Assembly (NCBI GenBank): GCA_030390025.1
Contig: CM059432.1
Location: 24,492,001 to 24,556,000, forward strand
Origin: Squalus acanthias
Lineage: Eukaryota
Reading direction: 5' to 3'
DNA length: 64,000 bases
The position numbers and the translations under genes were made by a program. The notes beneath the pieces are model-generated. The model was not told the DNA's origin, searched no databases, and saw only the letters and a list, made by a program, of their open reading frames with translations. Positions 4,126 through 56,800 of this stretch are shown here, piece by piece (the stretch's first letter is position 1; the number at the start of each line of letters is the position of its first letter).

Positions 4126-5345
4126 ATTTACTTTAAGCTTAGGTGATTATAAGCAAAACCACATACGTACTAAGACCAGATGAGAAGTCAATTCAACAAT
4201 GACTAGACATATGACTTTAACTGGCAACTGACCAGGTTGTCATCGACTGCAGCCACGAATGTCAGTCCACAATATCCCTTATACCCCAAAACTTGGCAAA
4301 TCGCCCACAGCATTCGTGTCCCAAACTGTGTGACTAACATTGTTTTTCTCTCTCTCCTTCTGTCTGTTTTGATGCTCAGTTAACCAAGGCTAGACATTCA
4401 AGGATTGGAGAGAGTCATTGGTTTTACATTTGCAGGTTGTTGACTCGTGGTTCTCACAGAATTTTCAAGATCTTATCTTTTGAAGGAAAAATACCAGCAT
4501 ATCATGTTTTAGCCAAGCAGTCTCTTGCCCTCAAAGCTTGTTGGTACATTTGGTCACTTTTAGCTTCAGTCAAGTTTACCACTGTCTTGTCACCTTTTGC
4601 TGTACAAATAGAAACACACCATCTGGGCAAGGCAGTGGGAGAGGATGGGGAGTGCAGGGGGTGGAAGGGAAAGTAGAGGAGGAAGGAAGAGGGGAGGGGT
4701 GAGGGCAGGAGTGCTGAGGAAGAGGAAGTCAGAATGTAGTGGGTAGGAGCATTGAGGCATGAAACAGCCATCAGGAGAGGAGACATATAACCAATGTACT
4801 GTGGATGGGACTGCAGTCAGGTGGCGGTTGCAGTAAAAGGTAAATTAAAACGGGCAACAGCAGCCAGTGGGGATGGAATGGGAAATACAGCCAGCTTTGG
4901 CGGTGGAGAAATTGCGTCAAAATCTTGCTAATCAGGAGTCTGAAATCTTATTCATCAGGAGGGGGAAGGGTTGAGTGTGGGAGGAGCATTTCCTGTTTGC
5001 TCGCTTCACGGCCATCACATTTTAACCCACTCTGCCCAGCAGGAAACTGATGGGATTAGTTTGGTCACCTGTTTTATACGCTATACTTTTACTTTCTATT
5101 GAGTTTAACGGAATGTTATAATGGGCAGGGTGTAAAATGGGCAGCCAATCTGATTCCATCACTTTCCCTCTGGGTGGGTTAGGTTAAAATTACCCCCACT
5201 GTTTTTAGTATATTATCTATGTATAAATGCTCTAAACTAGGGAATAGGAGATAGAATGTCAAAAATTTGCTGACATGAGGCAGATATAAGCGCAATGAGC
5301 TGTTCTGTAACTTTACTATAGCTTCCTCAGGCCAGCCATCTTCTA

Positions 5346-7400
5346 GTCATAGAGTCATAGAGTTATACAGCACAGAAAGAGGCCCTTCGGCCCATCGTGT
5401 CTGCACCGACCATCAAGCCCTGTCTATTCTAATCCCATTTTCCAGCACTTGGTCCGTAGCCTTGTATGCTATGGCGTTTCAAGTGCTCATCTAAATGCTT
5501 TTTGAATGTTGTGAGGGTTCCTGCCTCTACCACCCTTTCAGACAGTGAGTTCCAGATTCCAACCACCCTCTGGGTGAAAAAGTTTTTCCTCAAATCCCCT
5601 CTAAACCTCCTGCCCCTTACCTTTAAACTATGCCCCCTGGTTATTGACCCATCTACGAAGGGGAAAAGTTCCTTTCTATCTACCCTATCTATGCCCCTCA
5701 TAATTTTGTACACCTCAATCAGGTCTCCCCTCAGCCTTCTCTGCTCTAAGGAACCCCAGCCTGTCCAGTCTCTCTTCATAGCTGAAGCGCTCCAGCCCAG
5801 GTAACATCCTGGTGAATCTCCTCTGCACCCTCTCCAATGCAATCACATCCTTCCTATAGTGTGGCGACCAGAACTGCACACAGTATTCCAGCTGTGGCCT
5901 AACTAGCGTTTTGTACAGCTCCATCAGAACCTCCCTGCTCTTATATTCTATGCCTCGGCTAATGAAGGCAAGTATCCCATATGCCTTTTTAACCACCTTA
6001 TCTACCTGTCCTGCTGCCTTCAGGGATCTATGTACATGCATACCAAGGTCCCTCTGATCCTCTGTCCTTCCTAGGGTCCTACCATTCATTGTGTATTCCC
6101 TTGCCTTGTTAGTCCTCCCAAAATGCAACACCTCACACTTTTCAGGGTTAAATTCCATTTGCCACTGTTTTGCCCATCTAACCAACCCATCTATATCGTC
6201 CTGTAGCCTGAGGCTTCTCTCCTCGCTATTTACCACTCCACCAATTTTTGTGTCATCTGCGAACTTACTGATCATACCTCCTACATTCATATCTAAATCA
6301 TTAGTATACACTACAAACAGCAAAGGAACCAGCACCGATCCCTGTGGTACACCACTGGACACAGGCTTCCAGTCACAAAAATAACCTTCGAACATCACCC
6401 CCTGCCTCCTGCCACTAAGCCAATTTTGGATCCAATGTGCCAAATTGCCCTGGATCCCATGGGCTCTTACCTTCTTGACCAGTCTCCCATGTGGGACTTT
6501 GTCAAAAGCCTTACTGAAGTCTATGTAGACTACATCAACTGCACTACCCTCATCCACACACCTAGTCACCCCCTCAAAAAATTCAATCAAATTGGTCAGA
6601 CATGATCTCCCCCTGACAAAGCCATGCTGACTATCCCTGATTAATCCTTGCCTCTCCAAGTGGAGACTAATTCTGTCCCTCAGAATTTTTTCCAATACTT
6701 TCCCTACCACTGATGTTAGGCTCACTGGCCTGTAATTCCCTGGTTTATCCCTACTACCCTTCTTGAACAATGGTACTGCGTTAACTGTTCTCCACTCCTC
6801 TGGCACCTCCCCTGTGGCCAGAGAGGTTCTGAAAATTTGTGTCAGAGCCCCTACAATCTCCTCCCTTGCCTCACACAGCAGCCTGGGATACATCCCGTCA
6901 GGACCTGGGGATTTATCCACTTTTAAGCCCGCTAAAACCGCTAGTATCTCCTCCCTCTCAATACTAATTTGTTCAAGTATATCACAATCCCCCTGCCTGA
7001 TTTCTATGCCTACATCGTCCTTCTCCATAGTGAACACAGATGCAAAATTTTCATTTAAAACCTCACCTACATCTTCCGGCTCTACACACAGATTGTCACT
7101 TTGGTTCATAATGGGCCCTACTCTTTCCCTGGTTATCCTCTTGCCCTTAATATACTTATAAAACACCTTGGGATTTTCCTTTATTTTGCCCGCCAGTGTT
7201 TTTTCATGTCCCCTCTTCGCTCTCCTAATTTCTTTTTTAAGTACCCCCCTGCACTTTCTATACTCCTCTGAGGCTTCCACTGTTTTCAGTCCTTTGTATC
7301 TGCCAAAAGCCTCCCTTTTTTTCCTAATCCATTCTTGTATATCCCTTGACATCCAGGGTTCCCTGGGTTAGTTGGTCCCACCCTTGACCTTTATAGGAAC
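5346..7400 (-). mobile_element. 5'-truncated CR1 LINE (RT domain; frameshift near C-terminus)
   Basis: 545-aa ORF 5715-7352 with [21 protein letters not shown] and KFADDTK motifs; (CTATGACT)n tail; same subfamily as 42270-44310. Confidence 0.95.
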
Positions 7401-7409
7401 ATGATCTTT

Positions 7410-9271: not shown

Positions 9272-10205
9272 TTCAGAGCTACAAAAACAGTGGGAGCCCA
9301 AGAGAGAGCGAGAGTTCGGAGTTACAAAAAACAGTGGGAGCCCAGGAGAGAGCGAGAGTTCGGAGCTACTAAAACAGCGGGAGCCCAGGAGAGAGCGAGA
9401 GTTCGGAGTTACAAAAACAGCGGGAGCCCAGGAGAGAGCGAGAGTTCGGAGTTACAAAAACAGCGAGAGCCCAGGAGAGAGCGAGAGTTCGGAGCTACTA
9501 AAACAGCAAGAGCCCAGGAGAGCGAGAGTTCGGAGCTACTAAAACAGCGGGAGCCCAGGAGAGAGCGAGAGTTCGGAGCTACTAAAACAGCGGGAGCCCA
9601 GGAGAGAGCGAGAGTTCGGAGCTACTAAAACAGCGGGAGCCCAGGAGAGAGCGAGAGTTCGGAGCTACTAAAACAGCGGGAGCCCAGGAGAGAGCGAGAG
9701 TTCGGAGCTACAAAAACAGCGGGAGCCCAGGAGAGAGCGAGAGTTCGGAGCTACTAAAACAGAGGGAGCCCAGGAGAGCGAGAGTTCGGAGCTACTAAAA
9801 CAGCGGGAGCCCAGGAGAGAGCGAGAGTTCGGAGCTACTAAAACAGCGGGAGCCCAGGAGAGAGCGAGAGTTCGGAGCTACTAAAACAGCGGGAGCCCAG
9901 GAGAGAGCGAGAGTTCGGAGCTACTAAAACAGCAAGAGCCCAGGAGAGAGCGAGAGTTCGGAGCTACTAAAACAGCGGGAGCCCAGGAGAGAGCGAGAGT
10001 TTGGAGCTACATAAACAGCGGGAGCCCAGGAGAGAGCGAGAGTTTGGAGCTACTAAAACAGCGGGAGCCCAGGAGAGAGCGAGAGTTCGGAGCTACTAAA
10101 ACAGCGGGAGCCCAGGAGAGAGCGAGAGTTCGGAGCTACTAAAACAGCGGGAGCCCAGGAGAGAGCGAGAGTTCGGAGATACTAAAACAGCGGGAGCCCA
10201 GGAGA
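9272..10205 (+). repeat. 43-bp tandem repeat, ~22 copies (aaaacagcgggagcccaggagagagcgagagttcggagctact)
   Basis: Period measured from 9541 to 9584; a few 41-bp variants; no spacers. Confidence 0.97.
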
Positions 10206-10245: not shown

Positions 10246-10285
10246 TGATGTCACCAGAAAGCAGGTAAGTGATTGGTTGGTGAGT
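10246..10285 (+). promoter_or_regulatory. CR1 5' UTR cassette: CRE-like TGATGTCA, GTAAGT donor, ATTGG (reverse CCAAT), GTGAGT donor
   Basis: Same ordered motifs at 16831-16870 (+) and 53275-53316 (-); rearranged version at 48712-48765 (-). Confidence 0.55.
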
Positions 10286-10396
10286 ATTTCTATATTTCTC
10301 GCTTTTTTCCAAACTTGGGCGTATAAATTTAAGTGCCTTGGTGTAGATTAAAAGATATACGTCTTCCAAATTTTAAAACTAAATGAATTAATTGAG

Positions 10397-11341
10397 ATGG
10401 GAGACCAGGCAATGTGTTGTTGTTGTTGCATGTGGGAGCTGGTGGACACCATTGAGGTCCAAGGCGACCAAATCTGCAGCAAATGTTGGCTGCTCGAGGA
10501 ACTTCGGCTCAGAGTTGATGAGCTGGAGTCCGAGATTCAGACACTGTGACACATTAGGGAGGGGGAGCGTTACCTGGACGCTAAGTTCCAGGAGGCAGTC
10601 ACACCCACTAGAGTAATTACTTCCGATGTGGCCCATGGTCAGGGACAGGATGGTGTGACTACAAGCGAGGCAGATATTGGGATCCAGGAGGTAGTGATGG
10701 AGGAGCCTCAGCCCTTGGCCTTGTCAAACAGGTACGAGATTCTTGCTCCCTGTATGGACGAGGGCAGGGACTGCAGGGAGGATGAGCAATCTGACCACAG
10801 CACCGTGGTACAGGGAGCCATTCAAGTGGGGGGAGTAAAAAGAAATGTTGTAGTGATAGGGGATAGTATAGTTAGGGGGATAGACACTGTTCTCTGCAGC
10901 CGAGAGCGTGAGTCCCGAAGGCTGTGTTGCCTGCCCGGTGCCAGGGTTAAGGACATCTCCTCTGGGCTGGAGAGAAACTTGGAGTGGGAGGGGAAGGATC
11001 CAGTTGTCATGGTCCAATGACATAGGTAGGACAAAGAAGAGGTTCTGCTGAGAGAGTATGAGCAGCTAGGGGCTAAATTAAAAAGCAGAACCTCAAAGGT
11101 AATAATCTCTGGATTACTACCTGAGCCACGAGCGAATTTGCATTGGGTAAATAAGATCACAGAAATGAACGAGTGGCTCAAAGACTGGTGTGGGAGAAAT
11201 GGGTTTCGATTTGTGGGGCACTGGCACCAGTACTGGGATAAGAGGGAGCTGTTCTGTTTGGACGGGCTTCACATGAACCATGCTGGGGCTAGAGTCCTGG
11301 CGAATCGAATAACTAGGGCAGTAGAGAGGGCTTTAAACTAA
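10397..11341 (+). pseudogene. CR1 ORF1 (Zn-finger/leucine zipper + SGNH esterase), disrupted
   Basis: CxxC..CxxC motifs, LRLRVDELE zipper, VVVIGDSIVRG and DGLHMN esterase motifs; stops and frameshift. Confidence 0.9.
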
Positions 11342-16795: not shown

Positions 16796-19029
16796 CCGAA
16801 CCTTCGATGATTTCCAAAAAAACAAGGAGCGATGTCACAGGACAGCCAGGTAGGTGATTGGTTGGTGAGTATTAAGGTTTTTTTTTCCTCTCTTTTCTCT
16901 CTAACCTGGGACAGTGCTTTAAACTAGGTGCAGGAAACTACAAAGTACTGTATTAAATTTATAGCTTAACTAGTTAAACTAATGAATATAATTGAACAAA
17001 GACTTTAACTAATTAAATAAATAAAATAAGGCTAGACTAAGATATGGCAGGGCAGGTTGTGTGTCTGGACTGCAGTATGTGGGAGTTTGTGGACAGCGAT
17101 ACTGTCCCGAGCGAACACGTCTGCAGGAGATGTCTCCATCTCGAATCTCTCCGGCTCAGAGTCATTGAGCTGGAGTGTGAGTTGGAGACACTCCGACACA
17201 TAAGGGAGGGGGAGGAATTTCTGGACAGTTTTATCGAGAATGCAGGCACACCCCAGAGGAAAGCACAGGTTCAGGAAGGGGAAGGTGTGACTGCTTGGGA
17301 GCTGGGTTGTGGGGATTTAGGAGAGGTTGAGAAGGAGGTCCTGCAGACACTGGTCCTGTCCAACAGGTATAAAGTACTCGCTACCTGTGAGGACAAGGAG
17401 AAAGACTGCAGGGAGGACAGCCACAATGCAGACCAAGGCACCGTGGCTCAGAAGGCTGTCCAATGGGGGGAAGAACAGAATAGAAATGTGGTAGTGATAG
17501 GGACTCTATAATTAGGGGGATAGATAGCATCCTCTGCAGCCAAGAATGAGAATCCTGAAGGGTAAAGGATATCTCACGGTGGCTGGAGAGGAACTTGGAA
17601 AGGTAGGGGGTAAATCCAGTTGTAGTGGTCCCTGTTGGAACAAACAACATTGGTAGGAACAGGGAGGAGGTCCTGCTGAAAGTGTATCAGGAGTTAGGCT
17701 CTAAATTAAAAAGCAGGACCTCAAGGGTAATAAATTCTGGATTATTGCCCGAGCCATGTGCAAATTGGCATAGAAGCAGACAGATCAGGAGAATTAACAC
17801 ATGGCTAAGGGGCTGGTGTGGGAAAGAGGAGTTCCTTTTCATGGGACACTGGCACCAGTTCTGGGACAGGAAGGAGCTGTACTGATTGGATGGGCTCCAC
17901 CTGAACCGGGATGGGACACGTGCCCTAGTGGAAAGGGTAAAAAGGGAGGTGGCAAAGGCTTTAAACTAGTAAGATGGAGGGAGGGATCTACAAGAAATGT
18001 AACCAGCCTAATTATAAACAAAACAGGAAAAGAAAACATAGGAAAGAATAAAGTAAGGGAGGACATTGATGGCAAGAGAATAAACAGAGTTATAGAACAG
18101 GAGTCTAAAAAGACGGTTAAATATAAAGCGAGAGGAAATCCTATTAAAAATTAGTTAAACTGTTTGTACAGCAATGCACACAGTGTTCGTAATAAAACAG
18201 GGGAGCTGCAGGCAATCATGCGTTGCGAGGAACCAGACATAGTGGGGATTACTGAGACATGGCTACAGAAAAATCAGACTGGGAATTAAACATTGCAGGG
18301 TATAACATATTTAGAAAAGATAGAGAGAGAGAAAGGGGAGGTGGAGTAGCTGTACCTTTTCGGGATAACATAATAGCAGTAGAAAAAAGTGACGCAGCTA
18401 TCAGCAAGAAAAAAATAGAATCCATATGGATAGAGATAAAAGATAATAAAGGATCAATTACACTAGTAGGCGTAGTCCTACAGACCACCTAATAGTGAAA
18501 GGGAGGTGGAGGAAGAAATATGCAGACAAATTAGGGAAATGAGTAAAAAGCATAGAATAATAATCATGGGGGATTTCAGTTACCCCGCTATTAATTGGAC
18601 AGAAGAGGTAGGTAAAGGGGATAAGGGAATGGAGTTCCTACAAGTGTACAGGACTCCTTTCTAACCCAATATGTAAAATGCCTAACAAGGGAGGATTCGC
18701 TATTGGATCTGATAATGGGGAATGAACCAGAGCAGATAAGAGAAGTAAAAGTAGTGGAACATCGAGGCAATAGTGACCATAATATAATACACTTTAAGAT
18801 GATAATTGATAAGAATATAAGTATGACGAAAACCAGGGTAATAGATTGGAGAAACACTGATTTTGAGAGGCTGAGAATAGAACTTGGGAAAATAAAATGG
18901 GCAACAATATTAGCAAACAACAATGTAGAACAGCAATGGGAAACATTTAAAACGGTGTTCAACAGAGTGCAGGAACAATATATTCTGCTAAAAGGAAAGA
19001 ACAAGCTAAACCCTACTGAGACTCCATGG

Positions 19030-19105: not shown

Positions 19106-20512
19106 AAAGAGGCATACATTAAGTACATAGACAGCAGGGGAGTGCATGATAAGGGAGAATATGAAAAGATTAGGAGAGAATTCAAAAACAATTAGGAAGG
19201 CAAAGAGGAACTATGAAATTAAATTATCAAGGAACATAAAACAAAATAATAAAATATTTTACAGCCACATCAATAAAAAAAGGAAGGTTGGGATGGGAAT
19301 CGGGCCATTAATAGATAGACAGGATAATACCACAGGTAATGATAGAGAGATGGCAGATATATCAAATAATTATTTTGCTTCAGTATTTACCAGGGAGATA
19401 GAACAGGTGGACATGACATTGGATGATGAGATTAGTAATGAGATAAGTGCATTTAAAATAAAAAGAGGATATATTAAATAAACTAATGAAACTCAAAGAG
19501 GATAAAACCCCTGGTGCAAATGGATTGCAGCCATGCATTTTAAAAGAATCGAGGGAAGATATAGCAGAGGCATTACTACACATATTTAATAATACGTTAG
19601 AAAAAGGTGCAGTTCCAGAGGATTGGCGGATAGCTAACATAATATCTATATATAAGAAGGGGGATAGAACATGTCCAGGGAATTATAGACCAGTTAGCTT
19701 AACATCAGTGGTAGGAAAAATAATGGAATCCCTACTAAAGGAGAAAATAGAAGAACATCTAGAAACCAAAAATATAATAATGAATAGTCAGCATGGATTT
19801 CAAAAGAGGAGGTCTTGCTTGACCAATCTCATTGAATTTTTTGAAGAGGTAACAAAGAGAGTAGACAATGATAATGCAGTAGATGTAATTTATCTAGATT
19901 TTTAAAAGGCCTTCGATAAGGTACCCCATAATAGACTGATGAACATGGTCAGAGAATGCGGAGTCAGGGGACAAGTAGCAGAATGGATTGCTGGCTGGCT
20001 TCAAGACAGAAAGCAGAGAGTGGGGGTAAAAGGTAGCTATTCACAGTGGCAGAAGGTGGGTAGTGGTGTTCCACAAGGATCAGTGCTGGGACCACTGTTA
20101 TTCATAATTTAGACTTTGGAATCAAAAACACAATTTCTAAATTTGCGGATGACACCAAATTGGGCAGGATAGTCAATACTGAGGAGGCCTGCAACAACTT
20201 ACAGGAGGACATTAATAAACTTGCAGAATGGTCATATAATTGGCAAATGAAGTTCAACACAGATAAATGTGAGGTATTACATTTTGGTAGGAAGAATAGG
20301 GAGGTCACTTATTACTTGGAGGGTGCGAGTCTACATGGGGTAGAGGAACAAAGGGATCTCAGAGTACAAATGCTCAAATCACTAAAAGTTGCGACACAGG
20401 TTAGCAAGGTCATAAAAAAAGCATGATGTGGAGATGCCGGCGTTGGACTGGGGTGGACAAAAATGAGAAGTCGCACAACACCAGGTTATAGTCCAACAGA
20501 TTTATTTAATTT

Positions 20513-20549
20513 TACAAGCTTTCGGAGCTTTTCGCTCCTTCCTCAGGTA
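20513..20549 (-). ncRNA. Minimal hammerhead ribozyme motif (copy on the inverted PLE arm)
   Basis: Reverse complement of 22438-22474. Confidence 0.7.
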
Positions 20550-20787
20550 GGTTAGCAGTGAGAGAATCTCCCAGAATTCACAATTTAAACACAGACAAAA
20601 TCTATTCAAATCTTTCCCTACATCAAAGACACACTAAGAGCACAGCCAAGACAATGAGATGTGTCCCAGGGGGTCCAACGTGTCAAACCATCTGCTGGCT
20701 GCATACCCTGTCAATTTGTGTTGGTTCTTGTGTTAGTCTTTTTTAAAAAAAAAACAAACACCTGGGAAGACCGGCCATGATGTCAAG

Positions 20788-21214
20788 TCACGTTCTGTAT
20801 CGTGACATGAACCCGATATCGCGATTGAGGCCATCCTCATGAGTGCGGAACTTGGCTATCAGTTTCTGCTCTATGATTTTGCGCTGTCGTGTATCCCGAA
20901 GGCCGCCTTGAAGAACGCTTACCCGCAGATCCGAGGCTGAATGCCCCTGGCTGCTGAAGTGTTCCCCGACTGGGAGGCAACCCTCCTGCCTGGCGATTGT
21001 TGCGCGGTGTCCGTTCATACGTTGTCTCAGTGTCTGCATGGTCTCGCCGATGTACCATGCTCTGGAGCATCCTTTACTGCAACGTATGAGGTAGACAACG
21101 TTGGCCGAGTCACATGAGTATGTACCGTGTACCTGGTGGGTAGTGTCCTCACGTGTGATGATGGTATCTGTGTCCATGATTTGGCATGTCTTGCAGAGGT
21201 TGCCGTGGCAGGGT
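20788..21214 (-). pseudogene. Inverted copy of the PLE GIY-YIG coding end
   Basis: 129-aa minus ORF identical to the C-terminus of the 356-aa ORF except one residue (KII vs KTI). Confidence 0.92.
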
Positions 21215-21218
21215 CGGT

Positions 21219-22197
21219 TTCCTCAGAATCGGTTTCATTCTTGGACACACGAATCTCCATCAAAGACGGACGCCTCAGCACTTCACTCTACCGCAAGCCC
21301 ACGGACAACCTCACGATGCTCCACTTCTCCAGCTTCCACCCTAACCACGTTAAAGAAGCCATCCCCTATGGACAAGCCCTGCGAATACACAGGATCTGCT
21401 CAGACGAGGAGGAACACGATGGACACCTACGGACACTGAAAGATGCCCTCGCAAGAACGGGATATGACGCTCGACTCGTCGATCGACAGTTCCAACGGGC
21501 CACAGCGAAAAACCGCATAGACCTCCTCAGAAGACGAACACGGGACACAACCAACAGAGTACCCTACGTCGTCCAGTACTTCCCCGGAGCGGAAAAACTA
21601 CGCCATGTTCTTCGCAGCCTTCAACATGTCATCGATGACGACGAACACCTTGCTAAGGCCATCCCCACGCCTCCACTACTCGCCTTCAAGCAGCCGCCTA
21701 ACCTCAAAAGTACCATCGTTCGCAGCAGATTACCCATCTTTCAGGAGAACAGCAACCACGACACCACACAACCCTGCCACGGCAACCTCTGCAAGACATG
21801 CCAAATCATGGACACAGATACCATCATCACACGTGAGGACACTACCCACCAGGTACACGGTACATACTCATGTGACTCGGCCAACGTTGTCTACCTCATA
21901 CGTTGCAGTAAAGGATGCTCCAGAGCATGGTACATCGGCGAGACCATGCAGACACTGAGACAACGTATGAACGGACACCGCGCAACAATCGCCAGGCAGG
22001 AGGGTTGCCTCCCAGTCGGGGAACACTTCAGCAGCCAGGGGCATTCAGCCTCGGATCTGCGGGTAAGCGTTCTCCAAGGCGGCCTTCGGGATACACGACA
22101 GCGCAAAACCATAGAGCAGAAACTGATAGCCAAGTTCCGCACTCATGAGGATGGCCTCAATCGCGATATCGGGTTCATGTCACGATACAGAACGTGA
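21219..22197 (+). pseudogene. PLE ORF C-terminal part: RT thumb, Cys linker, GIY-YIG endonuclease (open, but lacks the RT catalytic core)
   Basis: FLDTRISIKDGRLSTSLYRKPTD..FHPNHVKEAIPYGQALRIHRICS; PCHGNLCKTC; VVYLIRC..WYIGET..LRQRMNGH..EQKLIAKF..GLN. Confidence 0.92.
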
Positions 22198-22437
22198 CTT
22201 GACATCATGGCCGGTCTTCCCAGGTGTTTGTTGTTTTTTTTTTAAAAAGACTAACACAAGAACCAACACAAATTGACAGGATATGCAGCCAGCAGGTGGT
22301 TTGACACGTTGGACCCCCTGGGACACATCTCATTGTCTTGGCTGTGCTCTTAGTGTGTCTTTGATGTAGGGAAAGATTTGAATAGATTTTGTCTGTGTTT
22401 AAATTGTGAATTCTGGGAGATTCTCTCACTGCTAACC

Positions 22438-22474
22438 TACCTGAGGAAGGAGCGAAAAGCTCCGAAAGCTTGTA
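22438..22474 (+). ncRNA. Minimal hammerhead ribozyme motif in PLE pLTR
   Basis: tac CTGAGGA a GGAGC gaaaa GCTCC GAAA gc TT gta: catalytic core, 5-bp stem II, 3-bp stem I, palindromic AAGCTT in place of stem III. Confidence 0.7.
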
Positions 22475-22716
22475 AAATTAAATAAATCTGTTGGACTATA
22501 ACCTGGTGTTGTGCGACTTCTCATAAAAAAAGCAAACCAAGCACTAGGGTTTATTTCTAGAGGTATGGAATTGAAAAGTAGGGAAGTTATGCTAAACCAG
22601 TATCGAACCTTGGTTAGACCACACTTAGAGTACTGCGTACAGTTCTGGTCGCCATATTATAAAAAGGATATAGAGGCACTGGAGAGGGTGCAGAGAAGAT
22701 TTACAAGGATGATACC

Positions 22717-23960
22717 ATTCTACCCACCCTCTGCACAAAGAATTGTTTCAAACTTCCATTTAACTCTTTTCGTGATTGTTGTGCCAGCCAGCAAAAACAA
22801 TTGTTCACTATTTACCTTATCAAAACCCTTCACAATCCTGAAGATCTCTAGCATCTCAGCTCAATGAAAAGAGCCCTAATTTCTCACTTCTCTCTCTTCA
22901 TATCATTATCCCTCCTCCCTAGTGAATTTACCCTCCAACTTTTCCATTGCTTTCTATAATGGAGTAACCAAAACTGTACACAATACTCGAATGCAATCTA
23001 ACTACAGGAAACTCTTTCGTATCCGGCACCGACGGGACCGGGATGGTGCCGATTGATTAAAAATTCCGGATAACGGAGAGGTATATCTACCGAGGCTATT
23101 TTTAACAAACAAAAATAAAAACATCAAGAAATGTGCAGTATAATTGGGTACTCCCCTACAGAATGTTGTGTTAAATGGATGGTGGAAGATGCTTGATTAA
23201 GTACAGTAATGCCAGTTGAGGGTAATCCATAACTCTTTAATTACTTAACAGTAAAACAAAACTTATAAACGACTGTATACTGTAGTTTTCGGAGTATGAA
23301 TTCTGCCGGTTATTAGAGAATTCCGGATATTTAGGTGCCGTTTAAACGAGAGTTTCCTGTAGCATCTTACACAAGTTCAACATTATCGCCTTGCTTTTGT
23401 ATTCTATGCTTCTCGATACAAAGTCATAGATTCTGTTTGCCGTTTTTATGGCCTTATCTACTTGCACTGCCACCTTTAATGCCCTGTGTATCTACATACT
23501 GAGATCCCTTAGCTCCTCTACTCCATTGAAAATCTTACCAATTAAAGTTTACTTCCTTTCCATAATGCATTTCTTTTTTTTTTCTAAATTGTGTATCTGG
23601 CCATCTTGCTAGCCTTCTATAGTCTTTTGCAAGTCCAAATCGCTTGCATGTAAATAAGAGTGGCCCCAACACATGACCCTGTGGAACATCACTTACCACT
23701 TCTTTTCAGGCCACGAAGCTTCCTTTTACCCTTATCCTTTGCTTTACAGCCTCTATCTCCCATATAGCCACACTTCCTTTAGCTCTATGTACCATTACTT
23801 TTATCATAAATATTTTAAGTGCTACCTTACCAAATGTTTTTTTCAAAATCCACATAAACCACACTCAATGCATTTACTTAATTTTTTTTCCCATTATTCC
23901 TTCAAATATTACTATAAGGTTGATCAAACACAATCTGCCTTTGAGAAAATGGTGCGGACT
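22717..23960 (-). mobile_element. Old, heavily decayed CR1 fragments
   Basis: Residual similarity to CR1 RT (e.g. HHFLKGRLCLINLIVIFEG, aaactgtacacaatactc). Confidence 0.6.
23005..23359. mobile_element. Tigger/pogo-type MITE
   Basis: TIRs caggaaactct / agagtttcctg flanked by TA on both sides; non-coding. Confidence 0.85.
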
Positions 23961-24035
23961 GGCCCTGATAAACTCAGTTTTTCCCAAGATCCCCAGCAAT
24001 GTGAGCCATTCCCACTGATGCCATGGCCTAGATTT

Positions 24036-24143
24036 TCTGAAATAAAAACAGAAAATGCTGGAAACACTCAGCAGATCAGGCAGCAACTGTGCAGAGAGAA
24101 ACAGCGTTAATATTTCAGGTCGATGACCATTCATCAGAACTGC
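24036..24143 (-). mobile_element. Short non-coding PLE-like element (single arm) with hammerhead core
   Basis: Homologous to the arms of 26850-27083; minus strand reads gtt CTGATGA atggtcatcgacct GAAA ta TT aac. Confidence 0.75.
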
Positions 24144-24226
24144 TTTCGTTCGGGGTCAGGGAGGGAAAGATCAGAGGGGATAGTGAAAACACGCCAAAGG
24201 GTGAGAGTGGAAAGAGGGATGGGGAA

Positions 24227-26165
24227 AGAAGAGCATGCCAGGAGCAGCACCAGGCTAACCTAAAAATGCGGTGCCAACCTGGGAAAGCTGCAACACAGGA
24301 CTACATGCATGCTAAAAAGCGGAAGCGGCATGCTATAGACAGAGCTAAGTGATCCCACAATCAACAGATCAGATCAAAGCTCTGCAGTCCTGCCACATCC
24401 AGTCGTGAATGGTGGTGGACCATTAAACAACTAACGGGAGGAGGAGGCTCCATGAATATCCCCATCCTCAATGATGGTGGAGCCCAGCACGAGTGCAAAA
24501 GACAAAGCTGAAGCATTTGCAACCATCTTCAGCCAGAAGTGCCGAGTGGATGATTCATATCGGCCTCCTCCTGAGGTCCCCACCACCACAGAAGCCAGTC
24601 TTCAGCTAATTCGATTCACTCCACGCGATATCAAGAAACGGCTGAGCGCACTGGATACAGCAAAGGCTATGGGCCCCGACAACATCCCGGCTGTTGTGCT
24701 GAAGACTTGTGCTCCAGAACTAGCCACGCCTCTAGCCAAGCTGTTCCAGTACAGCTACAACACTGGCATCTATCCGACAATGTGGAAAACTGCCCAGGTA
24801 TGTCCTGTCCACAAAAAGCAGACAAATCCAATCTGGCCAATTACTGCCCCATCAGTCTACTCTCAATCATCAGCAAAGTGATGGAAGGTGTCGTCGACAG
24901 TGCTAGCAAGCGGCACTTACTCACCAATAACCTGCTCACTGATGCCCAGTTTGGGTTTCACCAGGACCACTGAGCTCCAGACCTGATTACAGCCTTGGTC
25001 CAAACATGGACAAAAGAGCTGAATTCCAGAGGTGAAGCGAGAGTGACTGCCCTTGACATCAAGGCAGCATTTGACCATGTGTAGTATCAAGGAGCCCTAG
25101 TAAAACTGAAGTCAATGGGAATCGGGGAGAAAATGCTCCACTGGCTGGAGTCATACCTGGCACAAAGGAAGATGGTTGTGGTGGTTGAAGGTCAATCATC
25201 ACAGCCCCAGGACATCATTGCAGGAGTTCCTCAGGGCAGTGTCTTAGGTCCAACCATCTTCAGCTGCTTTATTAATGACCATCCCTCCAACATAAGGTCA
25301 AAAATGTGGATGTTCGCTGATGACTGCACAGTGTTCAGTGCCATCCGCAACTCCTCAGATAATGAAGCAGTCCATGCTGCATGCAATAAGACATTCAGGC
25401 TTGGGCTGATAAGTGGCAGGTAACATTTGTGCCATACAAGTGCCAGGCATTGACTATCTCCAACAAGCAAGAGTCTAACCACCGCCGCTTGATATTCAAC
25501 GGCATTACCATCATCGAATCCCCCACCATCAACATCCTGGGGTCACCATTGACCAGAAACTTAACTGGACCAGCCACATAAATACTGGCAAGGCTTTGGG
25601 GGGTCAGGAGGTGAGACACTCACCGCAGAATACCTAGTATCTGACCTGCCCTTGTCCTTCTCTCTACTTGCCTGGATGAATGCAGCTCCAACAACACTCA
25701 AGAAGTTCGACACCGTCCAGGACAAAGCAGCCCACTTGATTGGCACCCCCTCCACCAACTTAAACAGTCATTCCCTCAACCACCTTCGTACCATGGCTGC
25801 AGTGTGTACCATCTACAAGACGCACTGCACCAACTCACCAAGGCACCTTCGGCAGCACCTCCCAAACCCGCGACCTCTACCACCTAGAAGGACAAGGGCA
25901 GCAGGTGCATGGGAACACCACCACCTCCAAGTTCCCCTCCAAGTCACACACCATCCTGACTTGGAAGTATATCGCCGTTCCTTCATCGCCGCTGGGTCAA
26001 AATCCTGGAACTCCCTACCTAACAGCACTATGGGAGCACCTTCACCACACGGGCTGCAGCGGTTCAAGAAGGCGGCTCACCACCACCTTCTCATGGTCAA
26101 TTAGGGATGAGCAATAAATGCTGGCCTTGCCATCGACGCCCAGATCCCATGAACGAATAAAAAAA
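24227..26165 (+). mobile_element. 5'-truncated decayed LINE of the CR1/L2 group (distinct family)
   Basis: [24 protein letters not shown] and MFADDC motifs; tail gcaataaatgctggccttgcc..cccatgaacgaataaaaaaa. Confidence 0.85.
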
Positions 26166-26849
26166 TATATATATTCTCAGGCTTCCCCTCAACTTTCAAA
26201 TAGATGCCTACATTGCACTTGTATCTACCGTTCAAATGGTGCAATGCCAGGAAATACGTTGGAGACAGTACTTCCCTCATGTGCATCTTCCTCCCATTGG
26301 TCCACCCACAAATGGACTGGTGTATTCTGCATAACTGGTCTTGGGCATCAATAAATGGGGGAGATACAAAGGCGCCGCCGGTACATGTGCCCATAGATAC
26401 GTATAACCTGGGTACAAACTCAATTACGTGGCTTAAAAAATTGCAGACTTTTGGGCATACGTGAGTTACACTCGTAACTCCGATACGCTTAAATCTCTTT
26501 GATCCTGTATAGTCATCTATCAATCCCTCCAAACACATGCATCTCCACCCATAAAACTGGCCCCAATCCCAAATTAGTGAGTCTCATATACCAGTTTCCT
26601 ACAATTGCGCTTGCTCAGAGATATATCTGTTAGGTAATGACCATTTCCCAAAAGAGAAAGCCCAGTCAGCTCCCCATGGCATTCAACAACACCATTAATG
26701 TCAATTCCCCACCATTAACAGTTGGGGGTTACGACTGATCAGGAGCTTAACACCATGGCTGCAAGAGCAGGGCAGAAGCTGGATACTCTGTAGCTGCAAC
26801 AACACTCAGGAAGCTCGATACTACCCAAGACAAAGCAGATTACTTGATT

Positions 26850-27083
26850 ACAAAAGCAAAATAATGCGGATGATGGAAATCTGAAATAAAACCAGAAAAT
26901 GCTGGAAATACTCAGCGGGTCAGGCAGCATCTCTGGAGAGAGAAACAGAGTTAACGTTTCAGGTCAATGACCTTTTGTCGGTTCTGACGAAATGTCATCG
27001 ACCTGAAACGTTAACTCTGTTTCTCTCTCCAGAGATGCTGCCTGACCTGCTGACTATTTCCAGCATTTTCTGTTTTTATTTCC
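26850..27083. mobile_element. Palindromic non-autonomous PLE-like element carrying a hammerhead core
   Basis: ~104-bp inverted arms around a 2-nt loop (26982-26983); ~28-nt one-sided tail; 12-bp TSD gattacttgatt at 26838-26849 and 27084-27095. Confidence 0.85.
26981..27015 (+). ncRNA. Minimal hammerhead ribozyme motif
   Basis: gtt CTGACGA aatgtcatcgacct GAAA cg TT aac; stem I gtt/aac; palindromic AACGTT; one stem II mismatch. Confidence 0.6.
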
Positions 27084-40017: not shown

Positions 40018-40816
40018 CTGAAGCCCACCCATGAGTTCCAGCATAGACCTCCTGCCCAAGGTTCCTCTGCCCCAACATTTCTTCAACCCACCATCTATAG
40101 CACTTGCTTCTTCACTCACAGGCAGCATCTCAGATATTTTCACCTGGGGTAATTAGATAGTATGAGTGAGGATGCGGCAGGAGGTGATTCACAGAGCACA
40201 AAGGAAACAAAGGAGTAGTTATATAAGAACATAAGAATATAAGAAATACGAGCAGGAGTAAACCATACGGCTCATCGAGCCAATCAATAAGATCATGGCT
40301 GACCTTCGGCCTCAACTCCACTTTTCCACCTGATCCCCATATCCCTTGATTCCCCTAGAGTCCAAAAATCTATCTATCTCAGCCTTGAATATACTCAATG
40401 ACTCAGCATCCACAGCTCTTTGGGGTAAAGAATTCCAAAGATTCACAACCCTCTGAGTGAAGAAATTCCTCCTCAACTCAGTCTTAAATGGCCGACCCCT
40501 TATCCTGAGACTATGCCCCCTAGTTCTAGGCTCTCCAGCCAGGGGACACAACCTCTCAGCATCTACCCTGTCAATCCCCCTCAGAACCTTATATGTTTCA
40601 ATGAGATCATCTCTTATTCTTCTAAACTTCAGAGAGTATAGGCCCAATCTACTCAATCTCTCCTCATAGGACAACCCTCTCATCCAAGGGATCAATCTAG
40701 TGAACCTTGGTTGCATCGCCTCTAAGGCATGTATGTCCTTTCTCAGATAAGGAGACCAAGGTGTGGTTTCACCAAAGCCCTGTACAATTGTAGCTAGACT
40801 TCCTTACTCTTGTACT

Positions 40817-50588: not shown

Positions 50589-53500
50589 ATATGAACATAC
50601 GAATTAGGAGCAGGAGTTGGCCACTTGGCCCTTCGAGCCTGCTCCGCCATTCAATAAAATCATGGCTGATCCGATTACTCCACATTCCTGCCTACCCCCG
50701 ATAACTTTTCAGCCCCTTGCTTACCAAGAATCTAACTACCCCTGCCTTAAAAATATTTAAAGACTGCTTCCACCGCCCTCTGAGGAAGAGAGTTCCAAAG
50801 ACTCACGACCCTCTGTGAGAAAAAAATTCTCCTCATCTCTGTCTTAAATGGGTGAACCCTTATTTTTAAACAGTAACCCCTAGTTCTAGATTCTCCCACA
50901 AGAGGAAACATCCTCTCCACATCCACCCGGTCCAGACCCCTCAGGATCTTATATGTTTCCATCAAGTCACCTCTTACTCTTCTAAACTCCAGCGGATACA
51001 AGCCTAGCCTGTCCAACCTTTCCTCATAAGACAACCAGCCCATTCCAGGTATTAGTCTAGTAAACCTTCTCTGAACTGCTTCCAATGCATTTACAGATTT
51101 TCTTAAATAAGGAAACCATTACTGTACAGAGTACTCCAGATGTGGTCTCACCAATGCCCTGTATAACTGAAGCATAACCTCCCTACTTTTGTATTCAATT
51201 CCCCTCGCAATAAACAATAACATTCTATTAGCTTTCCTAATTACTTGCTGTACCTGCATAGTAACCTTTTGCGATTCATGCACTAGGACACCCAGATCCC
51301 TCTGCATCTCAGAGCTCTGCAATTTCTCACCATTTAGATAATATGCTTCTTTTTTATTCTTCCTGCCAAAATGGACAACTTCACATTTTCCCACATTATA
51401 CTCCATTTGCCAGATCTTTGCCCACTCACTTAACTTATCTATATCCCTTCGTAGCTTCCTTATGTCCTCTTCACAATTTACTTTCTTACCTATCTTTATG
51501 TCATCAGCAAATTTAGCAATCATACCTTCGGTCCCTTCATCCAAGTCATTTATATAAATTGTAAAAAGTTGAGGCCCCAGCACACCACTCGTTACATCTT
51601 GCCAATCAGAAAATGACCCATTTATGCCTACTCTCTGTTTCCTGTTAGCTAGCCAATCTTCTATCCATGCCAATATGTTACCCCCTACACCATGAGCTTT
51701 TATTTTCTGCAATAACCTTTGATGTGGCACCTTATCAAATGCCTTCTGGAAATCTAAGTACGGTACATCCACCGGTTCCCCTTTATCCACAGCACATGTT
51801 ACTTCCTCAAAGCACTCCAATAAATTGGTTAAACATGATTTCCCTTGCACAAAACCATGTTGACTCTGCCTGATTACTTTGAAGTTTTCTAAGTGCCCTG
51901 CTATCACGTCTTTAATAATAGCTTCTAACATCTATTTGCGCTATCAGTTCATCTGTTTTGTTTCAAATGCTACGTGCATTCAGATGCAGAGCCTTTAGTT
52001 TTGTCCTTTTATTATTTTTGTAACCTCTAGCCTTATCTGTTGATTTACTCTTAGATTTGTACTCTCTATCCCTTCCTGTCACAGTCTGTTTATCATTTCC
52101 CATATTAATACCTTTCTCGATTGCCTTGTCTCTAATCTTTGAATTACCACATCTTCCCAAATTTGATCCCATGCCCCCAATATTTCGTTTAAAGCCCTCT
52201 CTACCGCCCTAGTTATACGACTCGCCAGAACACTGGTCCCAGCATGGTTCAGGTGAAGACCGTCGCAACGATACAGATCCCACTTTCCCCAGTACTGGTG
52301 CCAGTGCCCCAGGAATTGAAACCCATTTCTCTCACACCAGTCTTTGCGCCACGTGTTCATCTCTCTAATTTTATTTACCCTATGCCAATTTGCTCATGGC
52401 TCAGTTAATAATGCAGACATTATTACCCTTGAGGTTCTGCTTTTTAATTTAGCCCCTAGCTGCTCATAGTCTCTCAGCAGAGCTTCTTTCCTAGTTCTAC
52501 CTATGTCGTTGGTACCTACATGGACCATGACCACTGGCTCCTCCCTCTTCCACTGCAAGTTCCTCTCCAGCCCAGAGCAGATGTCCCGAACCCTGGCAGA
52601 CAACACAGCTGTCTGGACTCTCACTCTTGGCCGCAGAGAACTGTATCTATCCCCCTGACTATGCTGTCCCCAATTACCACTACATTCCTATTAACTCCTC
52701 CCGCTTGAATGGCTTCCTGTACCTCGGTGCCATGGTCAGTTTGCTCATCCACCCTGCAGCCACCGCTTTCATCCATAAAGGCCGCAAGAACCTCAAACCT
52801 GTTGGACAATTGCAAAGGCTGAGGCTCCTCCACCTCCTGGGTTCCCATACATGCCTCACTCGCAGTCACATCCTCCTGTCCCTGACCACTGACCAAATCA
52901 GAAGACCCTATCCTAAGGGGTGTGACTGCCTCCTGGAATAAAGTGTCCAGGTAACATTCCCCCTCCCTGATGCATCGCAGTGTCCGCAGCTCGGCCTCCA
53001 GCTCATCAACTCTGAGCCGAAGCTCCTCAAGCCGCAGACACTTACCGCAGACGTGTTCGTCCTGGATCACACTGGCGTCCAGGAGCTCCCACATACTGCA
53101 GTCGCAACACATCACCTGCCCTGCCATCTTTATTGAGTCTTAATTTATTTATTTTTATTAAATAAACCCTACTACACCTAATAAGATTTATTACTGCTAG
53201 TAAACTAGTACTAATGAAACCTTGCAATTACTAACACATTTCCTGGGCTTTAAAAGATAAGGGAAGTGAGCAAAATACTCACCAACCAATCACTTATCCT
53301 TTTCCCTGTGATGTCACCTTTTATTGTTCTCCAAATGCGGTTGGGGGGTGTCACAGAACCGAACTCCCGCTGGTTCTCTGTCCCCTCTTGTTCAGCTTTT
53401 TAACTCCTGCTCTCCTGGAAGCTGACAAAGATAGAAAAAGAAAGGAACACCTCCCTCCCCGATCCCGCTCTCACCAAACTCGCAGCTTTACACTCTGTTC

Positions 53501-53825
53501 TGAGCTGCACTCTGTGACAAACTGCACTCTAGCCTCCCTTATTTATACTGCTGAGATTTAAATAAGTGAGCTCTCTGGCAGTTACAGAACCAGATTAGAC
53601 CAGTTAATTAATTAATTACACTCACCTGCTCTCCAGCACAGATCTTGCTTAGCCCTGCCCAAGCCTGGAAGAAACTTAAAACTTGAAACAGTAAATTTAA
53701 ATTTAAGTTAAATGCTAATTGCAAGCACACAAGACTAGATTTTATAAAAATGAGATTAACCATTAAGATTCACTCCCTCACTCACCAAACTCGCAGCTTT
53801 ACACTCTGTTCCGAGCTGCACTTTG
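50589..53825 (-). mobile_element. CR1 (CR1-C) with intact 5' end and a large internal ORF2 deletion
   Basis: ORF1 from 53127 (MAGQVMCCDCSMW..GDSIVRG); ORF2 start LHLNARSI joined directly to RT at ~51931. Confidence 0.88.
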
Positions 53826-56800
53826 TTTTGATCACTCTTCCCCAGAGGATCCTTTACTATGAGATTACTAATTAACCCTATCTCATTACACAATACAAGA
53901 TCTAAAATAGTCTGTTCCCTGGTTGGTTCCATGACATATTGTTCTAGGAAACTGTCTCAAAATGTATTCCATGAACTCGTCCTCCAGACTACCTTTACCA
54001 AGGGGTAAATGGGTAAGAATATTCCACCTTCCCAGCGGAAGCAAGAAAGAAGGCTGCCTATGGCTGTAGAGCAATGAGACCCAGAACTCATGGATAAATG
54101 CCTGAAAAAGATGTTTGAGAAACATCGTAACTACGTGTAGGCTTCGAAGTGAATCTTCTAGGATATGCCGCAACTGCGAGTTCACAGTTCTCATTTGCGA
54201 CAACATCATTTTACTCCATTGCAGGCATCAATGGCAGCATCATCAGAATCTGCAGCAGATCTGCAATGGCCAGGGACTAGTTGTGCCTCTACCACAATTT
54301 TGATGGTAATAGGGAAGGGAATAGACTGAACCCTGAATAGCAGTTTTCAGACCACAATGGCCACGATGCATGCTGATGTGTCTCAAGGCTATCAGGATCT
54401 GATAGCTGCCATTCTTCCAATCAGTGAAGACACAGATCCAGGGCCCAGTGCAATGGTGATGGGTTTAGTCAATTCGTTTGATTCTGCCATTACTCAGGAT
54501 TACATGCCAAGCCTCCAGCCTTCCTGCTCAGTGCAGCACATCAGTGGAACATGGGAGGCTACACCAGATTGCTCAGTAACAAGCTCCAGAGATGAAGCCA
54601 GAAGTAACTTCCTGCCAAGAGTAAGCCACCATAAGAGAAGGGCCACCTCAGTCCCATGACCCTTTTGTAGAGCATGAGCAGGTAACCACCTCTCTTGGTA
54701 CTGACCCTCAAGTTGCACCTAGGAGAAACACTAGAAGGGTTATCGAAAGCCATGTGAAGGTATCCAGGGAAGCATGGTGTTAGAAAAGAATAGGTTGGCT
54801 TGTGTACACTTTGGACTTCATTGTAAGAAAATAGAGTGCTCAGCGACATTGCTCTTTGTTATTTATGGAGAATGCATTGATTTGGTGCTGACTTATTCAT
54901 TCAGGTGATGATTATTGGCATACTCAAGTTGGAACAAAAAGGACTGATGTGTTGTTATGTTGTATGATTGGTCATGGATTGAGAGAATGTCAATGGCCCG
55001 GAATTTGCAGTTGTAATGATGGCAAAACTGTCAGCGCTGGCCATCATTGCTGTGTGAAACTGACAGCAAACTCTGGTGTCTGCACATGTGCAGTTAATCA
55101 TGGAAATACAGAAGTTGCTGTCAGTATACCCTGCTCCTCCACAGGGTGTGGTGTTGCAGTTCTCACAGATGGAATTCATTAGAAATCACTGAATTGACAT
55201 GAACTTAACTTTTTACGCACTATTCTCGCTGTAAAAACCCTTGAAAAACTTAAGCCTTGTTGAATTATGTGTAACTGAGTGTTTATCGCCGGACTAAGTC
55301 ACAATTACTGCTGAACAACCTCTCTGGCCCTGAAAAAATAGTTTTATATTGTGGAATGTCATTTTCTCCATTCTGTGATAAAAAAAATTCCATATAGTTT
55401 TAAAATAATAAAAATTAGTTGATTATTTTATTTTTTAAGTTTGCTTATGATATTTCAGCTTGCACCTTAATCTCATGTGTATGTCCCAATCCTTATTTTG
55501 CTTTCTGTGAAAGTATTAAAAAGTGAATGATAAAACCTGCTGAAAAATGGAAATTGATGCCGCAGAGCCCGCTAAATGTTTGTGGGCAACTTTCTTCGAG
55601 GTCAGCGACAAGCACTGTCCCTTCGCTGCTGACCGTAAGATCCGGGCTATTATCTATGTGCGCAGGAGGTAAGTGGGCTTTGTCACCCAGAAGCCACCCG
55701 TTGACCTATTTTTCTTCCCTCAAGAGGTCAGGCACCGGGCCAAATTTCGAAGGATGTATGCATCATGACAACTTGGAGTAAGTCGGAGGTTGGGACAAAC
55801 AATGGCTTAATGGCGGGAAACTGCCAGAAATGGCTTCTACCCGATTTTCCCATTACAAAAATGTAGTTGCTCCAATTGTACATTGCAAATACGATGAAAA
55901 TGAAAAGTATATTCATCCCCCACATTTTCAATTTATCGCATTTACCCCCCCTCCCCCTACCATGAGTAAATACATAGAAATAACCCTACATCATATAGAA
56001 CAATTATACTATTGTATAGAGTCATGTAGCTCAGGAAGGGAGATTGCTGGAATTGTTCTAACTGGTCTGAGAAATATCTGGAGCATATTTTAATTCTTAC
56101 CAGAATATTATAGAATTGTCTAAAAGTAAAATAAATAACTGAACAGCTTTTTACAAATTGAGCCAATAGTAAATAGTAGCTAAAAAAACATATTGTAAGT
56201 CACGGTTCATCACCATGTGCTTCTGCGAGCTTTAATAAATTACAAAGGTGTTGTGTCGTGCCCTTCATGCAGTGTGTAAGATGCACATATAGATCGAAGC
56301 TTCCTACTCATCTCAGTGAGCACACAGCACAGATTTATGCGATTGGATCTGAGCTAATTATTTTTTATTTTTTCAAATCAAGTCATAGCCCATCTTCAAG
56401 ATTGTAAAAATTATCTGCTTATTTGGCAGCCGATGCTTTAAGAAGATTGACTACTTGACGACCACTTGCTATTGCTGTGTTATGTTTAAAACCAATTATC
56501 ATTTGTCTCCATGAACGCTCACAGGCAGCATAACTAAAATTTGCCAAATCGTTCTTCTGTCATGTTGTTACATATTTCCTATCCATCTGCCAGCCAACAT
56601 TTAGCTGTTATTTAGTTGGAAGGAAGTGCTGTTGCTGCTACCAGGTGTTGGTTTTATTTATTTGTGCACAAAAAAGAAGTGCATTAATTGGATGAGGAGT
56701 GTTAGATCACATGTCAAAGTGAAATTATTAGACTATTTTACGACTCCCAGTCACTCAGTTGGCAAGCATAATGCTCAGTGAAGAACTAAACTATTCAGAC

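Follow-up and report, generated by a model that had tools for sequence, protein, structure and literature searches.

Results

CR1 LINEs in the window

The window, by which we mean the whole stretch of 64,000 nt analyzed here, is repeat-rich vertebrate DNA consisting mostly of pieces of CR1 LINEs. Searches with tblastn found four ORF1 starts, at 10397 (plus strand), 17044 (plus), 53127 (minus) and 48576 (minus), in elements that we call A, B, C and E, respectively; because their reverse-transcriptase (RT) regions are 64–78% alike at the DNA level, we regard them as members of four families. All are CR1-clade LINEs of the esterase ORF1 type. The GDSL/SGNH esterase domain (PF13472) was detected on the ORF1 fragment of element A (E 4e-06, 27.9 bits, under the cut-off of 32.9) and is present in four full-length ORF1 relatives, shark, ray or unnamed, with 54–66% identity; pieces of A, B, C and E contain RVT_1, and E also has Exo_endo_phos_2, the two parts of an ORF2 with APE endonuclease and reverse transcriptase; and the tails of A, C and E end in a short tandem repeat rather than poly(A), element B being 3'-truncated by another insert. 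The ORF1 relatives are from sharks and rays, and none were found in the viral, metagenome or prokaryote contigs searched; exact 16- and 18-mer DNA matches in 46 viral and metagenome loci were dismissed as chance, as these had no tblastn match to ORF1 or ORF2. The main features of the four elements are as follows.

9272..10205, plus strand: array of a 43-bp monomer in the 5' UTR of element A, 21.8 copies
10397..11341, plus strand: ORF1 of element A, with a Cys/coiled-coil N-terminus and a GDSL esterase, broken, ending in TTTAAAC and a stop codon
16381..16796, plus strand: array of a 63-bp monomer in element B, 6.6 copies
17044, plus strand: ATG of ORF1 of element B
48900-48172, resuming at 45433, minus strand: element E, split by a nested 5'-truncated LINE, D (about 48150-45430)
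48576, minus strand: ATG of ORF1 of element E
53127, minus strand: ATG of ORF1 of element C

The TTTAAAC at the end of ORF1 (11329-11341, plus strand, in A) does not vary among A, B and C, and E has it as well. The 5'-truncated LINE that splits E has an open frame of 922 codons (45526-48294, minus), and a 5'-truncated copy with 94% identity to E lies at 5345-7402. C, E and other inserts, all in one orientation with it, break up an older CR1 (40230-54001, minus). The 3' end of B is interrupted by a 754-bp inverted repeat (20463-22524; 20463-21214 against 21771-22524, 99% identity), inside which an open frame of 359 codons (21118-22197) had no Pfam match. Further along, 23360-27358 holds a distant LINE ORF2 of another clade, with flanking repeats and about 28–30% identity to the CR1 ORF2, and 34029-35096 (minus) an open frame for a pogo/Tigger-type DDE transposase (CENP-B_N, HTH_Tnp_Tc5 and DDE_1).

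A cassette upstream of ORF1

A first-pass annotation of this DNA had described a cassette of a CRE-like motif, a CCAAT box and twin splice donors in all four CR1 5' UTRs. The cassette is real: the motifs are where they had been placed, all four ORF1-bearing LINEs carry them, and they occupy the same four places as the only ORF1 starts found with tblastn. Two details need correction. Twin donors are present in A, B and E, but C has a single one, with GATAAG at the place of donor 1; and the fourth cassette (48712-48765, minus), whose host is the split element E, is present but differs in order, CCAAT coming first and both donors after it. The parts of the cassettes and the spacers that follow them are listed below.

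10246..10253, plus strand: CRE of A, TGATGTCA; family consensus TGACGTCA (SquAca_CR1-15a, matched by eye)
10262..10272, plus strand: donor 1 of A, CAG followed by GTAAGTGA, GT at 10265, rank 3 of 6725
10272..10276, plus strand: inverted CCAAT box (ATTGG) of A, 18 bp after the CRE
10277..10287, plus strand: donor 2 of A, TTG followed by GTGAGTAT, GT at 10280
10288..10396, plus strand: pyrimidine/U-rich tract of A, then AT-rich spacer (GC 0.29), no strong acceptor
16830..16872, plus strand: cassette of B; decayed CRE 16830-16837; donor 1 with GT at 16850 (CAG followed by GTAGGT)
16857-16861, plus strand: ATTGG of B, gap 19, against 18 in the consensus SquAca_CR1-3; donor 2 with GT at 16865
16873..17043, plus strand: U-rich tract and AT-rich spacer of B, with two AATAAA
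48713..48764, minus strand: cassette of E; CRE variant TGACTTCA at 48764-48757; ATTGG at 48738-48734, gap 18
48734 and 48720, minus strand: GT of the two donors of E (GTAAGT and GTGAGT)
53275..53316, minus strand: cassette of C; CRE variant TGACATCA at 53316-53309; ATTGG at 53290-53286, gap 18; donor 2 with GT at 53282
53297, minus strand: donor 1 position of C, A in the window copy and G in the family
53128..53274, minus strand: AT-rich spacer of C, with five AATAAA

Chance is a poor explanation for this arrangement: the pattern GATTGGT-N(1-14)-GGTGAGTA matches four times in the window, compared with a mean of 0.01 and a maximum of 1 in 100 shuffles. The distance from the CRE to ATTGG is 18, 19, 18 and 18 bp in A, B, C and E, and in all four the donors adjoin or overlap ATTGG. 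Ordered by the energy of the duplex with U1 among the 6725 GT sites, seven of the eight sites take ranks 3, 4, 20, 22, 23, 24 and 31, the sense-strand strength expected of a protective promoter-proximal U1 site; donor 2 reads GTGAGTAT in all four copies and matches U1 through +8. The spacers before ORF1 are AT-rich, as had been claimed (GC 0.28–0.33), those of A and E being devoid of AATAAA. That of E (48577-48712, minus) contains three more GTAAG motifs. A fifth CRE-like/ATTGG pair at 18 bp (28548, minus) sits in an unrelated repeat and was set aside.

In element C, both donor positions can pair with the sequence just past donor 2 in a predicted hairpin (53250-53302, minus; z -1.97, 5/200 shuffles). 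Nothing comparable was found in A, B or E, and a search for conserved RNA structure across the cassettes was negative, C alone folding better than its shuffles.

Conservation of the cassette

Pairwise identity among the four copies is 0.63–0.87 in the cassette (0.47–0.53 when shuffled), compared with 0.53–0.59 (0.50–0.54) in the 100 nt upstream of it and 0.45–0.58 (0.43–0.51) in the spacer, the borders of the cassette having been chosen after the conservation had been seen. Identity exceeds that of ORF1 positions 1-180 in five of the six pairs, mostly by 0.03–0.07, and in a three-way alignment 32 of the 52 cassette columns do not vary; stretches of 46 columns in ORF1 contain a median of 27 invariant ones, with a maximum of 40. 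The cassette is thus about as conserved as ORF1, not more. The earlier view that it looks selected between divergent flanks is nevertheless supported beyond what was visible from the window, because the 18-bp spacing between the CRE and CCAAT is fixed and the donors have been repeatedly gained and moved across three shark genera. What did not survive is its treatment as one unit: in the published consensuses, it is composed of two layers separable in evolution, a CRE–CCAAT pair, probably a promoter element, and a set of sense donors.

A probable promoter element of fixed spacing

For comparison we used the CR1-group consensuses of PMC13343379 (Supplementary Table 2), scoring the first 400 nt of each by eye. 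We scored 70 shark rows (24 Squalus, 24 Carcharodon and, taken from one part of the file, 22 Scyliorhinus), half of which (35) show the UTR upstream of the spacer and are informative; the other 35 begin further 3' and were dropped. The rows are related and some are collapsed, and the independent count is therefore smaller. Among the families, A corresponds to SquAca_CR1-15a, B to SquAca_CR1-3, E to SquAca_CR1-6a and C to the collapsed SquAca_CR1-21.

The consensuses matching A, B and E contain a perfect CRE, TGACGTCA, and the CREs of A and B in the window therefore show CpG decay; in A it is the central CpG that has decayed, while the CRE of E differs by a transversion. The CpG-free form TGACATCA is found at the family level in the family of C, CarCar-16 and -7a, and ScyCan-12 and -16. 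Fixed in several shark families (53309-53316, minus, in C), this form could be insensitive to methylation; the c-jun promoter has the same CRE variant.

In 14 of the 15 shark rows that have a CRE-like 8-mer here and an intact sequence after it, ATTGG starts exactly 18 bp past the CRE (Squalus 15a, 15b, 18, 3 and 6a; Carcharodon 11, 14, 16, 7a, 19b and 4; Scyliorhinus 12, 16 and 19), the exception being SquAca-9 and the collapsed SquAca-21 having been set aside. The content of the 18-bp linker differs and comes in about nine types. A fixed length with free content is what one would predict for a DNA site bound by two proteins, and the CRE and the inverted CCAAT box at 18 bp probably constitute a promoter element acting at the DNA level. 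Three search terms joining ATTGG to a donor gave 15 sense matches, all in 14 shark CR1 rows, and four reverse-complement matches in other rows.

Donors that move and multiply

A sense G|GTRAGT was seen by eye in 30 of the 35 informative rows (8/9 in Squalus, 14/16 in Carcharodon and 8/10 in Scyliorhinus), the remaining five lacking a strict donor in the first 400 nt. The 25 Squalus and Carcharodon rows together have 34 sense donor sites and, by eye, none in antisense (roughly 1 expected, by estimate); antisense donors occur in two of the 10 Scyliorhinus rows, one of them just upstream of the CRE. In most rows, the donors number two or three and lie on the 5' border of a spacer rich in T or AT, and their positions vary: before ATTGG, after it, on both sides of it or upstream of the CRE. 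They alternate between GTAAGT and GTGAGT, both compatible with U1. In CarCar-3, -5, -6 and -19a and SquAca-7, there are two or three donors, some below the strict motif, and neither CRE nor ATTGG, and ScyCan-2, -9 and -11a likewise have two or three donors without either; ScyCan-12 and -19 have kept the CRE–ATTGG pair and have their donors upstream instead. In two rays, with the first five rows of each viewed, HypSab-1 and PriPec-1, -10, -2a and -3 contain two or three donors without a CRE–CCAAT pair. The window agrees with the consensuses: GGTRAGT occurs six times in the four 300-nt UTRs, compared with 0.43 expected, and once in five coding bodies (16 kb), compared with 3.3.

Free position, redundancy and strand bias are as predicted for a signal in RNA, and they argue against the explanation that a factor site carries the donor along. 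Over the whole consensus set, there are 127 sense and 90 antisense donors, and so modest a bias speaks against donor strand bias as a strong trait of the CR1 group in general. Outside the elasmobranchs, single donors were found in some tortoise, alligator, lungfish, caecilian and frog rows, and the cassette was not seen by eye in the handful of rows viewed for each; the coelacanth rows are truncated, and the skate and chimaera rows are not clear-cut.

Acceptors and RNA evidence

The first-pass annotation had remarked on the lack of an obvious acceptor before ORF1, and this holds: none of the four spacers contains a YAG preceded by at least 11 pyrimidines in 15. By the same threshold, there is none in the 3.6-kb body of B, one in A, in an inserted tail fragment, and one in C, near its 3' end. 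E has an acceptor-like site at 48263, inside ORF1, and in C a pyrimidine tract runs up to an AAG located 35 nt past donor 2. That is too close for an ordinary intron, given the usual size limit.

Four contig sets were aligned to C (51950-53900, likeness 85): X1, X2 and X5 are RNA by guess, and X19 is of DNA size. Donor 1 is intact in the family of C, as G dominates at 53297 in all of them (25.2 of 30.1 depth in X1, 12.2 of 12.2 in X2, 21.5 of 21.5 in X5 and 5064 of 5458, in 20 contigs, in X19). Unspliced contigs cross the donors or the spacer in every set (record 4 of X1, record 22 of X2, record 31 of X5 and records 14 and 15 of X19), and a joint of 53129 to 53274 in X5 replaces the spacer while keeping donor 2 and the ATG. 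Evidence for junctions from the cassette donors is thin: one contig leaves C at donor 1, but no joint from these donors is among the 15 listed of 55, and no loose end at them among the 24 listed of 870. The contig in question is record 6 of X1, with a length of 215 nt and a depth of 40.5. It matches C between 53442 and 53298, the base adjoining donor 1 on its 5' side, and beyond that point come 63 letters that do not resemble the window; it is a single contig from a 93%-alike relative, its direction taken from records X2-17 and X5-25, and it may represent a splice out of the element or a subfamily difference. The suggestion that these LINEs drive first exons fits only that contig. Shark gene models P0006-P0008 were rejected as cases of LINE first exons, the ORF1 piece lying mid-protein and the models looking like prediction artefacts. 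A spliced ORF2 mRNA, also suggested earlier, is not supported: there is no strong acceptor near the start of ORF2 and no such joint among the 15 listed of 55. Nor are spliced retro-copies (SpIREs) present among the four window copies, all of which keep donor 2 and the spacer. The fall in contig depth from 53326 to 53297 was discarded as evidence; it is seen in X1 (113 to 30) and X2 (105 to 12), but also in X19 (10800 to 5458), and X5 scarcely shows it (27 to 22). The middle of the CRE of C does not figure among the 40 differences listed of 319.

Upstream of its cassette, C has a longer leader.

53298..53421, minus strand: exon-like segment of C, 124 nt, between a pyrimidine-rich acceptor (AG ending at 53422) and donor 1
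53422..53828, minus strand: extended leader of C, with a donor GT at 53785, an acceptor at 53665, a 39-nt exon-like piece and a donor GT at 53625

The donor at 53625 is the best U1 site of the window (rank 1 of 6725). One contig of X5 runs from 53786 straight into 53421; the skipped part has GT..AG ends, which coincide exactly with a donor predicted in the leader and with the acceptor predicted there as best. The intron so defined is upstream of the cassette, and its joint has a side of 29 and does not occur in X19. As a whole, the leader (53283-53828, minus) resembles a multi-exon 5' UTR with a duplicated 45-nt start: the second copy begins at 53510 and has a TATA box (TATAAAT, 53547-53541) 30 nt before it. 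ScyCan_CR1-11b has a similar monomer layout.

Discussion

What can be read directly from the DNA is which motifs are present, how they are spaced, on which strand they lie and how they turn over, and that ORF1 is not preceded by a strong acceptor; for the factors that bind, the start site, and the binding of U1 and its effect, we have to infer. The account that we favor, and that we think could equally well prove right or wrong, is an internal promoter coupled to orphan U1 sites that would license the elongation of an intronless, AATAAA-rich RNA. [quoted passage not shown] On the nascent RNA, two to four strong 5' splice sites and a U-rich tract would bind U1 snRNP, with no need for splicing, and U1 would mark the intronless, A-rich, AATAAA-rich transcript as mRNA-like. 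So marked, the transcript could escape early termination, by Restrictor or by premature cleavage and polyadenylation, and be copied at full length with the cassette intact; splicing from the donors to host or cryptic acceptors would be an occasional by-product. The cassette is inherited solely through unspliced RNA that starts upstream of it, and the donors must therefore pay without being used. Of the three functions proposed in the first-pass annotation, U1 binding for expression or protection from early termination appears to fit best.

Several published observations bear on this account. In mammalian cells, Restrictor is blocked by a strong 5' splice site in sense, even one that is not spliced (PMC12211998), and the short list of motifs that explain human transcription starts includes NFY, CREB and U1, the last acting after initiation and raising mature RNA (10.1101/2023.06.27.546584). 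In the element bodies, AWTAAA exceeds the shuffled level in A (12 vs. 5.0), B (16 vs. 7.1) and C (6 vs. 2.4) and is not enriched in E (3 vs. 2.5) or in the nested element D (3 vs. 4.5). The hairpin of C would hide its donors from U1 and possibly counts against a role of U1. NFY can repress when just downstream of the start site (PMC11269187), and as NFY and CRE usually act upstream of the start, the pair may drive a start inside the spacer or in antisense. Evasion of HUSH was dropped as an argument, since protection from HUSH is independent of the 5' splice site (PMC8770142). Taken further, the clusters of orphan 5' splice sites in shark and ray CR1 elements might have evolved, and re-evolved, in many families as a decoy first exon that recruits U1 snRNP without splicing and so defeats a host filter against non-mRNA transcripts, an idea that we put forward tentatively and somewhat short of an even chance.

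A competing use of the donors is regulated splicing, in which leader exons are joined either to sequence downstream or to an acceptor within the element, in ORF1 or ORF2, yielding a second mRNA or limiting the element. The X1 contig that leaves C exactly at donor 1, the X5 joint between a predicted donor and the best acceptor of the leader, the layout of that leader as exons and introns and the acceptor-like site in ORF1 of E all speak for it, as does the fact that donors in the human L1 5' UTR do splice (PMC5860796). Yet the contig is a single one, from a relative, and open to a subfamily difference; strong acceptors are missing from the body of B and number one each in A and C, in an inserted fragment and near the 3' end; no cassette-donor joint or loose end is among those listed; and the unspliced contigs of X1, X2 and X5, if RNA, read through the donors or the spacer. 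Were an internal splice efficient, moreover, new copies would lack the donors, yet these persist. We consider regulated splicing unlikely, and a spliced ORF2 mRNA would be its weakest form. That the donor-like sequence is a by-product of factor sites in the DNA, with the promoter alone being of importance, is distinctly unlikely. The donors do adjoin or overlap ATTGG in the window, and the L1 donor lies within a RUNX3 site and, when mutated, leaves about 18% of the mRNA (PMC5860796), but the shark donors outlast the CRE and ATTGG, shift relative to ATTGG, multiply, alternate between two forms and are nearly all in sense, and ray elements have donor clusters without the pair.

Another alternative has the CRE–CCAAT pair as a separate downstream or bidirectional promoter with a start in the spacer or in antisense, and the donors serving read-through or host transcripts from upstream. 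NFY and CREB motifs activate starts pointing away from them on both strands (10.1101/2023.06.27.546584), the spacer is AT-rich, and antisense donors exist in two Scyliorhinus rows, one just upstream of the CRE. An RNA started in the spacer, however, cannot pass the cassette on, so its conservation would have to be explained through the supply of protein only, and the TATAAA in the spacer of A is absent from the consensus of A; we judge such an arrangement improbable. Hardly credible, finally, is that the cassette is a neutral leftover of shared ancestry between replaced flanks. Its identity is close to that of ORF1, and CR1 5' UTRs are described as differing between subfamilies (PMC2734521), but the linker diverges while its length stays 18, the donors recur at nonhomologous positions, and the spacer is near the shuffled level though enclosed by homologous anchors; the patterns of spacing and turnover already largely refute neutrality.

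Splice donors in LINE leaders, as in human L1, and protective U1 sites are each already known. What we did not find in the open literature is a report of both together with a fixed CRE–CCAAT pair in shark CR1, or of the layers having been separated by evolution; a description of the cassette was likewise not found in the open literature searched, subscription papers and repeat databases lying outside its scope, and the main text of PMC13343379 has no match for 'splic', 'promoter' or 'motif'. The retention of potentially harmful splice donors by LINEs has been called surprising (PMC5860796). The donor of human L1 overlaps with the factor site, and the two are inseparable there; shark CR1 families have separated them, which makes the question of why LINEs keep such donors directly testable. 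The fixed spacing also provides a first handle on the shark CR1 promoter. CR1-group elements constitute 22–34% of shark and ray genomes (PMC13343379); with a promoter and strong donors in every full-length copy, they could be a source of numerous alternative first exons. If the decoy reading is true, these abundant elements would be ready-made units of promoter plus first exon, and its logic may account for the donors of other LINE leaders, the one in human L1 now ascribed to RUNX3 among them.

Comparison with known systems

A zebrafish LINE of the CR1 group, ZfL2-1, is said to have been reported by Tamura, Kajikawa and Okada in 2007 to carry functional splice sites that affect the expression of host genes. 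The X2–Y distance of MHC class II genes is similar to the 18 bp of the shark pair. In their SXY module, as in the shark, order, orientation and spacing are fixed, the CREB site coming first and the inverted CCAAT second (PMC7866136), but the shark cassettes have no RFX X1 box or S box upstream, where the flank is A-rich in all four and unconserved (judged by eye). The geometry differs from the bias between bZIP and CCAAT sites described from ENCODE data, where the distance is 10–12 bp on the 5' side of CCAAT (PMC7793273). The chicken elements CR1-B and CR1-F are alike in having an internal promoter in the 5' UTR and UTRs that differ between subfamilies; the factors named for the chicken promoters are E boxes, C/EBP, USF, Sp1 and Oct-1/AP-1, and 'CCAAT' does not occur in the text of that paper, nor GATTGG, GTAAGT or GACGTCA in the supplement (PMC2734521).

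With the promoter-proximal 5' splice sites that block Restrictor, the shark donors share strength, sense orientation and, presumably, an early position in the transcript, and the effect of those sites does not require splicing (PMC12211998; 10.1101/2023.06.27.546584); they were described in host genes and reporters in mammalian cells, not in a retrotransposon or a shark, and we extend the effect here by inference (PMC12211998). The closest parallel among LINEs is the donor G98U99 in the RUNX3 site of the human L1 5' UTR, together with the SpIREs: there, too, the internal promoter of a LINE holds a conserved and mostly unused donor beside a site for a transcription factor, and spliced copies are dead ends (PMC5860796). 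Human L1 differs in having one donor at a fixed place, working acceptors in the UTR and ORF1, and a retention ascribed to RUNX3 (PMC5860796). Shark CR1 elements, in contrast, have two to four near-consensus donors that are mobile and persist when the factor sites are lost, and their ORF1 has no strong acceptor ahead of it; an L1-type tie between donor and factor site does not seem to hold for them, as donors persist without CRE or ATTGG in five Squalus and Carcharodon rows.
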